Positions 1 through 3,167 are shown, counted from the first letter of the stretch. The stretch is DNA of 64,000 nt from an uncultured delta proteobacterium (GCA_963733195.1 CAVTCR010000053.1:38439-102438); one strand, 5' to 3'. Made by a program: numbers and translations. Notes: a model not told the origin generated them from the sequence alone.

Positions 1-280
1 AAAATCAGAGGCGTTACCTCCTTTTCTGCTGTCATCAAAGTGTGGAGTTATTGCGTACTAGAGTAAGCGTCACTAGCTCAGTATTTACGAGAGCTGACGT
101 TGCATACCGCCCCATAGAAAATCGTGCCGCCCCAAGAATCTACCTTCTTTCTGTACGATTGGCAAACTTTTCGGCAAGAAATTTTCTTATCGAATCCTGT
201 CTCAGCACCATTGAGCGGTCACACAGTATTGCTTATGGTGATACAAACATAACATTGTGGCTCGCATGCAAGGAGTATAG

Positions 281-1309
281 ATGGAACAACATTGGTACGG
301 AAACCGTCCTCAGCTTTGGCTGATGGTGTTGTCGTTTGTCCTTGTTACCGCACCGACGGTACATGCCGAAGGTGTAACCTCATCATCTTGGGCGGTGCTT
401 AATGGTCGCAATATTACAGAAGCGGACCTATCTGCGGTCAACAATGGACAAACTGCGCGGACGATGCATAACCAAGTGTATCAAGCCCGCAAACAGGCGC
501 TTGATGCCTTTATTACGGACCAGTTACTGGTAGATGAAGCAAAGAAACGCGGCATATCGCGCGAGCAGCTTGTCCAACAAGAAGTTGATGCGAAAATCGC
601 AGAGCCGACAGCGGCAGAAATTGAACAACTCTATAATGCGAACAAAGCACGTCTCGGTGGGAAGTCACTTGAGGAATCAAAGCCCACTATTATTTCTCAT
701 CTCAAAGGCCAGAAGCGTCAGACGCAAATGCAAGACTTTGTCCGTAGTCTACGGCGAGCTGCCGGTGTCAAGATGTTGTTAAAACCTCCGCCGCTCAATG
801 TGACTCTTGATGGTGCGCCTACCCGTGGCCCGGCCACTGCTCCGGTGACGATTGTCGAGTTCTCAGATTTCCAATGACCGTACTGCGCTCGAGTTCAGTC
901 TGAACTCGCCAAGGTTCGTGAGATCTATAAAGATAAAGTCAAAATTGTGTACAAAGATTATCCTCTAGAATTTCACAAGGATGCACGGAAAGCAGCGGAA
1001 GCTTCTCACTGTGCCGGAGAGCAGGGGAAATATTGGGAGTACCATGACGTACTGTTTGCGAACACCAACGCTCTTGGTGTTGCCAATCTTAAGAAATATG
1101 CAACCGACCTAAAATTGGAAGTGAATCAGTTCACTACCTGCTTAGACAGTGGGAAGTATGCAGCAGCGATTACCAAGGATACTGCTGAGGGAGTCCAGGC
1201 TGGGGTAACTGGGACACCGGCGTTTTTCATCAATGGTCGTTTCCTTTCTGGAGCCCAACCGTTCGCGTCGTTCCAGGATGCAATTGAGGAAGTGCTGGAA
1301 ACGCAGTGA
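281..1309 (+). CDS. Secreted SurA-N-like + DsbA/thioredoxin-fold oxidoreductase, predicted selenoprotein (UPYC active site, Sec at TGA 875-877)
   Basis: ORFs 281..877 and 947..1309 are in the same frame, separated only by TGA. Read-through gives VTIVEFSDFQ-U-PYCARVQSELAKVREIYKDKVKIVYKDYPL, i.e. DsbA FxDFxCPYC with the first Cys as TGA. cis-Pro motif GTPAF. Signal peptide ending VHA. Confidence 0.85.
878..910 (+). promoter_or_regulatory. Putative bacterial SECIS element
   Basis: 8-bp stem CGAGTTCA(890-897)/TGAACTCG(901-908) with apical GTC about 20 nt after the TGA. CAGUCUG resembles the CAGGUCUG top of the E. coli fdhF SECIS. Confidence 0.7.
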
Positions 1310-1428
1310 AAGACTGAGGACTGAGTGCTCAGGACTGAGTTTAGAAAGTTTCAAGTTTAACGTTTAAGGTTCAAAGTTTACGGATTACGTTTTACGCATC
1401 ACATTTTACGCTTTGCACTTTGCAACTG
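1308..1428. repeat. Degenerate heptamer tandem repeat tract
   Basis: Units GACTGAG-like, then AAGTTTC/AAGTTTA/ACGTTTA/AGGTTCA, then ACGGATT/ACGTTTT/ACGCATC/ACATTTT/ACGCTTT/GCACTTT. The 7-nt period persists while the unit drifts. Confidence 0.75.
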
Positions 1429-1493
1429 ATCGTCCTTCTCCGTCTGCTGTACCCCTCTTGGCGGGTCAGAAACGGCTATGGTAATTGTTGCGC

Positions 1494-2703
1494 ATGGCTG
1501 ACAACACAACCAAAACTGAACGTCGAGTGACGCCGGGTGCACCACCACCCCGACCAACTACTATCACCCCTCGAACTTGGCCGCTCTTGGCGATCCGCAT
1601 CCTTGCCTTCGTGGGGATGTGTATTGCCGTGTATTTATCCGTTCTTCATTACCAGGCTGGCACGCACGGAACCTTCGCTTCGCCTTTGTGCACCATCAGT
1701 TCGACAATTAACTGCAACGCCGTCTTAGGGAGTGTCTACGCGCGGCTCTTTGGCGTGCCGATTGCCACTTGGGCAGCGCTCACCTATGCCGCCATATTGG
1801 GTGTGTCTTTCCTTGGTTCGATTAGTGTTCTCGTTTTTTTGTGTAGCTGGTCTTTCATTTTCTCTCTCTACATGGCCGGTCTCTCGCTGTTCACTCTTCA
1901 GGCGGGATGCCTCTTCTGCATGAGCTTGTATGCCGTTAATATCGGCCTCTTCATCAGTGCGCTTGCACTGACCAAGCAGGCGAGGAATTTTAGTTTTCGG
2001 CAGTTGCAGTATGGCCTTGCGGCATGTGTAGTCCTGGCTCTCGCGTTCGGTTGGGCACAAGCGAAACTTGCCGATACAATTACTCCCCCCGGAGGTCTCT
2101 TCAGACAAAGGCTTCACGGAAACCTATGACAAACTACGTCAGGTCACGCTCAACGTTGCAGAGAGAAACACCAAAGGTTCACCACAAGCGGCAGTAACCA
2201 TCAGTGAATTTCTTGACTTTCGCTGTCCCGCATGTGCCCGCGCTCGTGAGACGCTCTCAAAACTTGTCGAAAAGTATCCCAACGACGTGCGTGTGGTTTT
2301 TCATTCGTACCCACTCGACAACGAATGCAATTCCAGCCTGCCACAGCAAGTGCATGCTGCGTCCTGCCTGGCATCCTATGCCGCGGAGTGTGCCAGTGAA
2401 CAAGGAAAGTTCTGGGAATTTGCTGATCGGTTGTTTGCCGATCAGCAACGAGTATTCTCCCGTCCAGACCTTGAAGTTCATGCGGGCGCCGTAGGGCTCG
2501 ACATCAATAGCTTCAACACGTGTATGAACAGCGGGCAGACGAAAGGGATAGTTCGCCGGGATGTTGAGGAAGGAATACGTATCGGTGTGAATGCAACGCC
2601 TACACTAGTGATCAACGGACGCGTCGCTGAAGGGCTACCCACTCCTGAACAGTTTGACACCATCGTCGCAATTGAGAAGCAACGAGCGATGGCAAGCAAG
2701 TGA
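1494..2703 (+). CDS. Vitamin K epoxide reductase (VKOR)-DsbA fusion (frameshift near C-run 2085-2090)
   Basis: VKOR loop cysteines LCTISSTINCNAVLGS, CLFC motif and TM helices in 1485..2129. DsbA domain FLDFRCPAC...NATPT in overlapping ORF 2068..2703. Confidence 0.85.
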
Positions 2704-2753
2704 TGAGGACTGAGGACTGAGTCGACGAGGACTAAGGACTGAGGACTCAGTCA
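2702..2753. repeat. (TGAGGAC)n heptamer arm, downstream flank of four-helix-bundle gene
   Basis: tgaggac tgaggac tgagtcg acgaggac taaggac tgaggac; reverse complement of the arm at 3168-3200. Confidence 0.8.
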
Positions 2754-3167
2754 GAAGTTTCCTCGTTGTTCAGATTTCTCTGTTTCTCGACTGAGACGCG
2801 TAAGCCTCCAACAATACGAGCCAAGTTCTTCTGGCCAAGGACAAGAGCGTATCAAAAGTCGATTGGTCAAGTATGGCCAACGTCGAGAGCGACGTAAAGC
2901 TGAGACCGAACTTCAGCGCAGGATGCTTTTGCCACAGAGAGCAAATTGGTGGAATTCTCCACGTCCTCCTCGTTCAAATCCTTCGGCAATATTCGACATG
3001 ATAGACACTGCAGCGCGTTGGATTTGCCCTGAGAGTCCAAAGTCTTTGGCGAAAGAGCCTTTCTGGGTGATCGCATAGATTTCTCGGGTGAGGATTCTTG
3101 CCTTCTGCCATGCTACCAAATCCTCAAACCGCTCGATACGTTTGACTCGATCAGCTTTATTCTCCAT
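2747..3167 (-). CDS. Four helix bundle protein (23S rRNA intervening-sequence protein family), frameshifted
   Basis: [10 protein letters not shown]...[27 protein letters not shown], continuing in shifted frames as [17 protein letters not shown]...RIVGGL to TGA at 2747-2749. Confidence 0.85.

Follow-up and report, generated by a model that had tools for sequence, protein, structure and literature searches.

A DsbA-like gene with a candidate selenocysteine codon, a SECIS-like hairpin and an N-terminal SurA-like module in an uncultured Binatia bacterium

We analyzed a 64,000-nt stretch of DNA, hereafter referred to as the window, whose source organism is an uncultured Binatia bacterium. Close to its start, positions 281-1309 of the plus strand translate as one frame of 342 residues with a single internal stop (Table 1). 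This stop is a TGA in the context FSDFQ-TGA-PYC and falls where the DsbA motif has its first Cys, a codon at which orthologues with Cys are found. Gene calling with table 11 yielded two in-frame ORFs, 281-877 (198 aa) and 947-1309, and across the 120 codons 3' of the UGA the frame is open and the sequence conserved. An earlier sequence-only reading of this DNA had described two in-frame ORFs parted solely by a TGA at the first DsbA Cys, which is what we found, and had predicted that standard callers would split the gene. They do so: the 198-aa fragment is returned under table 11 and is also present among database gene calls.

Table 1. Features of the candidate selenoprotein locus in the window, and genes for selenocysteine (Sec) insertion in the same genome.
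Feature	Position	Strand	Basis or remark
Shine-Dalgarno-like AGGAG	271..275	+	5 nt 5' of ATG; read from sequence
Sec-type gene, whole	281..1309	+	342 codons and terminal TGA; orthologues align over residues 1-342
Signal-peptide-like N-terminus, residues 1-29	281..367	+	by eye: VHA before EG
SurA-like chaperone module (putative), residues 30-178, no parvulin domain	368..814	+	sequence profiles
DsbA-type thioredoxin domain, residues 179-339	815..1297	+	Pfam and PDB matches
Candidate Sec codon UGA (residue 199), position 1 of UPYC	875..877	+	TGA/Cys alternation among orthologues
Resolving Cys codon C202 of UPYC	884..886	+	invariant among 43 aligned sequences
SECIS-like hairpin, 8-bp stem, loop GUC	890..908	+	folding, conservation in TGA forms, covariation, bSECIS fit
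True stop, TGA again	1307..1309	+	same end point in orthologues
VKOR-DsbA fusion gene, CPAC active site, two frames in assembly	1485..2703	+	Pfam
selA	contig C11		two frames, 315 aa and 195 aa; 293 and 130 bits
tRNA-Sec (selC)	contig C11, beside selA		70.7 bits, cut-off 47
selB	contig C81		397.8 bits, cut-off 242
selD	contig C81, beside selB		375 bits; in-frame TGA reading GUAGK

The first 29 residues of the encoded protein show a charged start, a hydrophobic stretch and an A-x-A-like end and contain no Cys, hence no lipobox, from which we infer that the protein would be exported to the periplasm. The region that follows, residues 30-178, resembles a SurA/PrsA-type protein reduced to its chaperone part, minus the parvulin domain. 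A SurA-like N-domain had been proposed from the sequence alone, and this assignment stood at the level of the family and of profiles but not for the window protein itself, which scored below the Pfam cut-offs (SurA_N_2, 26.0 bits against 28.5; SurA_N_3, 25.4 bits against 27.2; PF13623 / PF13624). Among 43 aligned family members, SurA_N_3 matched 31 (E <=0.01, best 3.1e-08) and SurA_N_2 matched 17. When a profile of the N-domain (A3) was compared with a structure database, matches were obtained to HP0175 (6.3e-08), Cbf2/PEB4 (3.9e-05), LIC12922 (0.0034) and PrsA (0.062). The match to HP0175 consists of two stretches, the helical N-terminal and C-terminal parts of that protein; in contrast to SurA-like chaperones, no parvulin PPIase domain lies between the stretches, and a DsbA domain follows.

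The assignment of the C-terminal part as a DsbA-type oxidoreductase with a UxxC active site, also made from the sequence alone, is well supported by Pfam and PDB matches and by an invariant active site. Thioredoxin_4 and DSBA match the window protein with E-values of 1.7e-32 and 1e-25, the DsbA-family profiles (PF01323 / PF13462) score above their gathering thresholds (113.4 vs 23.2 bits and 91.1 vs 25.6 bits), and all 43 family members match. PDB matches over residues 183-339 include 7unn, 4pwo (DsbA), 3gyk and BdbD 3eu3. Invariant in the 43 sequences are U/C199, C202, T312-P313, which we take to be the cis-Pro loop of the DsbA fold, and a further Cys pair, C244 and C287.

Past the internal UGA, positions 890-897 can pair with 901-908 in eight Watson-Crick pairs that enclose the loop GUC (898-900). 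The sequence-only reading had placed an 8-bp hairpin about 20 nt downstream of the UGA; the hairpin is present, and this distance is true of the loop, at 20 nt, but not of the stem, which begins 12 nt past the UGA. Its top, CAGUCUG, presumably resembles the loop of the E. coli fdhF SECIS. When both strands of the window were taken together, 2262 TGA trinucleotides were counted, and 5 of them (0.2%, with 875-877 included) had a perfect stem of at least 8 bp starting 8-20 nt downstream. Compared with shuffled sequence, folding stability was not unusual (z -0.44 for 870-940 and z -0.18 for 875-925). As the stability of the single sequence is at chance level, the case for the hairpin rests on comparison with relatives; the single sequence alone is suggestive and short of decisive. 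A search of Rfam over positions 1-3000 at a permissive threshold gave no match at the hairpin and three weak, chance-level matches elsewhere.

Like the E. coli fdhF-type SECIS and the bSECIS model, the hairpin is a stem-loop within the coding sequence, just 3' of the UGA and with a small loop; as there, the loop opens with G, followed by U or G, and lies 20 nt from the UGA. The consensus bSECIS has an apical loop of 3-9 nt and an upper stem of 4-16 bp, according to the legend of Fig. 2 in PMC13188914. The same source gives three further rules, namely a G within the first two loop positions, a UGA-to-loop distance of 16-37 nt and a minimum free energy (MFE) of -7.5 kcal/mol or lower (PMC13188914). 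The hairpin falls within every one of these limits, with a loop of 3 nt, a stem of 8 bp, 20 nt between UGA and loop and an MFE of -9.1 kcal/mol. The loop G is found both in the window (GUC) and among relatives (GUC, GGG, GGC or GGA).

A six-frame search of the genomes of 60 relatives yielded 29 orthologous loci (L024-L052), which were aligned with the window's own region (L023). Across these 30 loci the codon aligned with the internal TGA is TGA in 19 and TGT or TGC in 11; the loci and genomes are related, and counts per genome are accordingly non-independent. The hairpin follows the same division. It is found in all TGA forms (19/19), with a stem of 7-8 bp, a 3-nt loop and energies of -7.7 to -10.4 kcal/mol for a 23-nt piece, whereas no Cys form (0/11) has an equivalent hairpin, the energies of the same piece being 0 to -5.5 kcal/mol. 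All 19 TGA-form loops start with G and continue with U or G. Cysteine/TGA alternation together with a covarying hairpin, confined to TGA forms, is thus what the homologue search proposed in the sequence-only reading brought to light.

In 18 distinct Sec-type sequences, 92.4% of the stem cells are paired, vs 9.7-46.5% when the 3' partners are slid. Covariation is confined to one pair (36-44 of alignment A1), where 10 sequences have U-A, 7 have G-C and 1 has G-U; at the outer end of the stem the last pair is missing in 11 of the 18. The change from U-A to G-C combines a synonymous replacement (GUU->GUG) with a non-synonymous one (GAA->GCA, Glu->Ala). None of 500 shuffles matched the paired share or the covariation score, figures that are overstated as the sequences are kin, and a further measure, pairs with change on both sides, was reached by 498 of 500 shuffles. 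Third codon positions in the stem are fixed or covarying in Sec forms but freely variable in Cys forms. The peptide ARVQAEL, for example, is common to L027, a Cys form, and L025, a Sec form, but the codons of L027 break the stem. The peptide therefore does not dictate the hairpin, and the limitation of the stem to Sec forms despite the same peptide points to a constraint at the RNA level that is tied to the UGA.

The distribution of the two forms was followed through the taxonomic family of the window's genome, in which an orthologue was detected in 51 of 55 genomes (E <=1e-60). Exactly one TGA occurs within the match in 38 of the 51 and none in the remaining 13; the 38 count a TGA anywhere in the match, the position of the codon being confirmed for the 19 loci of the 30-locus alignment. 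Orthologues with one TGA make up all of those in genera g8 (27/27), g1 (3/3), g5 (3/3) and g9 (1/1), a part of those in g10 (3/5) and g3 (1/8), and none in g2 (0/1), g4 (0/2) and g6 (0/1). Outside the family, L038, from a single genome in another family of that order, likewise has TGA. Elsewhere in the class, 14 genomes of further families gave 15 full-length matches, all without a stop. When one genome per species was scanned, Cys stood at the site in 78 of the best 80 loci; these 78 are mostly from Acidobacteriota and include records titled Myxococcales, Nitrospirales, Bdellovibrionota and Leptospiraceae. TGA was present in the other two, both of them Binatia contigs, those of L025 and L026.

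A quick maximum-likelihood tree was computed from 43 sequences with the active-site column removed; L031, L047 and L050 are not part of it, and an internal stop led to the exclusion of L064. All 27 Binatia sequences fall into a single clade with a support of 99, 17 of them Sec and 10 Cys forms. At least 6 changes between Sec and Cys are needed on this tree, and at least 2 are forced by well-supported branches alone. The hairpin is homologous in all Sec forms, for which the simplest account is that Sec arose once, at the base of the clade; the Sec form was probably ancestral for this Binatia clade, with several later reversions to Cys.

Directly downstream of the gene on the same strand lies a second DsbA-type gene, in which Pfam recognizes VKOR on 1485-2129 (2.8e-18) and Thioredoxin_4/DSBA on 2068-2703. 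VKOR is a substitute for DsbB and often adjoins, or is fused with, a DsbA- or Trx-like partner; as in VKOR-dependent disulfide formation, the VKOR of the window is fused to DsbA. The reading frame of this gene changes at a run of C near 2084-2090, and in a genome of the same genus it is one 405-aa ORF. At least 26 genomes of the family have a second DsbA-type match in an open frame of about 400-540 aa within about 4 kb and on the same strand, the VKOR fusion being confirmed by Pfam in the window only; judged by eye, the second ORF of L024 and that of L046 align with or resemble the window's VKOR ORF in their N-terminal part. The VKOR-DsbA gene is a candidate Sec form in the same-genus genome and a Cys form in the window. 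The paralogue in the same-genus genome has a post-UGA hairpin of 6 bp with the loop 8 nt from the UGA, outside the bSECIS spacing rule. Upstream of the candidate selenoprotein gene, the opposite strand carries an unrelated gene, the encoded protein of which has an end that is histidine-kinase-like. A scan of positions 1-2800 for promoters and terminators gave sites no commoner than in shuffled sequence; on the plus strand, the interval separating the two genes had none.

All four genes for Sec insertion whose presence the sequence-only reading had made a check, selA, selB, selC and selD, were located in the genome (Table 1), although a frameshift breaks selA in two in this assembly. The in-frame TGA in the GUAGK motif makes SelD itself a candidate selenoprotein. 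The break in selA is a 1-nt shift near ...VYGL, which splits the Pfam match at about position 190. An intact selA is present in all 10 relatives examined, which include the same genus and are divided evenly between the Cys form (5) and the Sec form (5). Reversion to Cys was thus unaccompanied by loss of selA in the Cys-form relatives, and the break in the window's assembly is the exception. With selA whole in relatives and another frameshift at a homopolymer in the same assembly, in the neighboring VKOR-DsbA gene, the frameshift in selA is more likely an assembly artefact. Were it real, the strain could not make Sec-tRNA.

The selA break leads to one of the alternatives to selenocysteine insertion at this locus: the gene may be functional in the lineage while selA is truly broken in this strain, so that the UGA terminates translation and the product of a decaying gene is a 198-residue chaperone fragment only. 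Besides the two frames themselves, the frameshift site speaks for this, as it shows no obvious homopolymer. On the other side stand the intact state of the gene, of its hairpin and of the UGA of selD, the ten relatives with whole selA and the second frameshift of the assembly in the adjoining gene, and we give a truly broken selA a slim chance. A different proposal is that the UGA is decoded outside the Sec system, either by genome-wide reassignment to Trp or Gly or by near-cognate read-through that inserts Cys or Trp. Computation cannot distinguish the identity of the inserted residue, which leaves some room for such decoding, but the gene's own end is a TGA at the end point of its orthologues, and genome-wide reassignment was rejected on this ground. 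Moreover, the internal UGA aligns with Cys and not with Trp or Gly, and a full set of sel genes accompanies a hairpin of SECIS type; decoding of this kind is very improbable.

The TGA could also have arisen through an error of sequencing or assembly or through a nonsense mutation of recent date, and the locus would then be an ordinary Cys-DsbA or a pseudogene. Errors do exist in this assembly, and the support for the TGA in sequencing data comes from Logan contigs, not raw reads. A 281-nt contig of DNA run X1 (Logan) covers 701-981 without a listed change at 875-877, so the TGA anticipated in sequencing data is there, unchanged, in an assembled contig; X1 may be the source sample, and its agreement is then not independent. 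Contigs of RNA run X2 lie at 708-858 and 898-1048, with the UGA in the gap between them, those of run X6 stop short of the site, and a contig of X3, from a relative, covers 842-881 and then diverges from the window. What weighs against an error is comparison with other genomes. The codon is TGA in the loci of 18 other genomes, one TGA is found in 38 of the 51 family orthologues, and the protein database adds independent evidence with 198-aa calls, besides the window's own, that end in ...EFSDFQ or ...EFSDYQ on three other contigs (99, 99 and 91% identity) and stop at the same residue. In addition, the hairpin is restricted to TGA forms and the downstream 120 codons are open and conserved. A substitution error at this codon had been thought less likely from the sequence alone, and the recurrence of the TGA in 18 other loci and in the calls of three other contigs agrees with that view; sequencing error was rejected because the TGA is conserved across genomes, and we regard the chance of an error or a recent nonsense mutation as close to negligible. 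Judged from these comparisons of sequence, positions 281-1309 very probably constitute one gene for a selenoprotein in which UGA 875-877 is the Sec codon in this lineage.

Selenoproteins of the DsbA-like kind have been reported before, as the sequence-only reading had stated (PMC1088965, PMC1794560, PMC13188914). In 2005 the Sargasso Sea metagenome yielded nine predicted UxxC sequences, placed under COG2761 (PMC1088965), and DsbA-like selenoproteins are recorded for Anaeromyxobacter, Desulfovibrio desulfuricans and Desulfotomaculum reducens (PMC1794560). An entry in a 2026 review reads "DsbA-like protein form 1, PF01323, UxxC" (PMC13188914). Going by what these sources give for form 1, it and the window protein share PF01323, Sec as the first residue of UxxC and a SECIS directly past the UGA; the window protein adds a putative signal peptide and a SurA-like module, neither of which is mentioned in the passages of these sources that describe form 1. 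Among curated families, the best NCBIfam match is NF041057 (Rcas_1661 family thioredoxin-like (seleno)lipoprotein), at 125.2 bits and below the cut-off of 190, with residues 159-337 aligned on model positions 61-246 of 247. Similar to the family of the window protein, NF041057 includes both Sec and Cys forms. Unlike NF041057, the window protein is without a lipobox Cys, and the chaperone module is absent from the NF041057 model. COG2761 is presumably of the FrnE type. FrnE chains match residues 259-338 only, whereas BdbD-type and other DsbA chains cover the whole domain (175-339), which points to another DsbA subfamily for the window protein than COG2761/FrnE. A search of a limited literature collection found no paper on Binatia and selenocysteine or on Binatota and selenoproteins; selenoproteome surveys may list such genes in their supplementary tables. 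The kind of protein is already known, and what is new is another DsbA-like selenoprotein, with a chaperone fusion and a Sec/Cys series within one family.

The following course of events would be consistent with these observations. UGA 875-877 would be decoded as selenocysteine, with the mRNA hairpin 890-908 acting as a bacterial SECIS: as in the established bacterial pathway, SelB carrying Sec-tRNA(Sec) would bind this stem-loop when the ribosome arrives at the UGA, leading to Sec at codon 199 and not to termination. The predicted product is a periplasmic protein composed of a signal peptide, a SurA-like module without PPIase and a DsbA domain with U-P-Y-C, in which Sec199 and Cys202 would alternate between a selenenylsulfide and the reduced selenolate/thiol. 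In general, Sec differs from Cys in its faster exchange and its redox potential. The chaperone module may hold unfolded clients, whose disulfides the DsbA domain would meanwhile make or rearrange. Given the gene neighborhood and general knowledge of VKOR systems, we infer that the Sec-DsbA may be re-oxidized by the adjoining VKOR-DsbA membrane protein, with quinone. As the stop at codon 199 falls about 20 residues past the end of the chaperone module, a stand-alone chaperone product is conceivable, and the UGA might then serve as a selenium switch that gives a chaperone-oxidoreductase fusion with selenium and a stand-alone SurA-like chaperone without it. We consider such a switch unlikely; if true, Binatia would have oxidative folding that is partly tuned by selenium, together with the VKOR-DsbA gene.

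While our understanding of Sec decoding itself is unchanged, the finding bears on how these genomes are annotated. Because standard calling leaves a 198-residue fragment, the main periplasmic disulfide catalyst would be missing or mis-sized in databases for many Binatia genomes. Among the matches listed, most of which are unnamed, none is named a selenoprotein, and full-length Cys forms among them are named "thioredoxin domain-containing protein" or "protein-disulfide isomerase". The scope of DsbA-like selenoproteins would be extended by an uncultured soil lineage and by a chaperone-fused architecture. Finally, the family offers a clean natural Sec/Cys series of one enzyme, in which a change from Glu to Ala appears to be tolerated to keep the RNA stem. 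It would thus be suited to asking what Sec brings to a DsbA-type oxidant, and may serve as a model for the evolution of SECIS elements within coding sequence.

The gene adjoining that of P0001, the predicted DsbA-like selenoprotein of the window, encodes a VKOR-DsbA fusion protein with the active site CPAC and is split over two frames, which change over at a C homopolymer around 2084-2090. In the same-genus counterpart (L024), TGA replaces the first active-site cysteine (FVDFR-U-PAC), and a genome search listed one TGA somewhere in the match to this paralogue in several further relatives as well. The hairpin of the L024 paralogue falls outside the 16-37 nt from UGA to loop expected under the consensus bacterial SECIS model (bSECIS). 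Between the two window genes, the spacer 3' of the P0001 stop codon is taken up by degenerate tandem repeats with the units GACTGAG (4 copies) and AAGTTTC (4.9 copies) and a unit of 14 bases.

Within P0001 itself, a second cysteine pair besides the active site, C244 and C287, is invariant across the 43 aligned sequences; this pair may form a structural disulfide. An orthologue in a Deltaproteobacteria bacterium MAG (L064, 1501-2511) carries an active-site cysteine, but its match is interrupted by a single stop codon away from that site. A contig from the soil metagenome run X3 (record 8) matches window positions 842-881, 40 bases spanning the UGA, and differs in sequence beyond them; it probably represents a related gene from another organism.

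Coordinates of the features described in the window, its genome (G000) and a same-genus genome.
Feature	Location	Strand	Remarks
P0001 Cys pair C244/C287	window 1010-1012 and 1139-1141		helical insert of DsbA domain
Degenerate tandem repeats, 7-base units	window 1312-1411		spacer 3' of P0001 stop codon
VKOR-DsbA fusion gene	window 1485-2703	+	adjoins P0001 gene
VKOR-DsbA counterpart	L024 2691-3908		single 405-aa ORF
selA	G000 contig C11, 21666-22767; L001 942-2448	-	two ORFs
selD, in-frame TGA	L020 1441-1680 (G000 contig C81, about 171.2 kb)		reads ...AAG-U-AGK...

As for the selenocysteine machinery of G000, selA is immediately adjoined by tRNA-Sec and is divided into ORFs of 315 and 195 aa by a 1-nt frameshift near ...VYGL; it is unbroken in 10 of 10 relatives examined. 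selB is directly followed by selD, whose in-frame TGA makes this selenophosphate synthetase a candidate selenoprotein in its own right.
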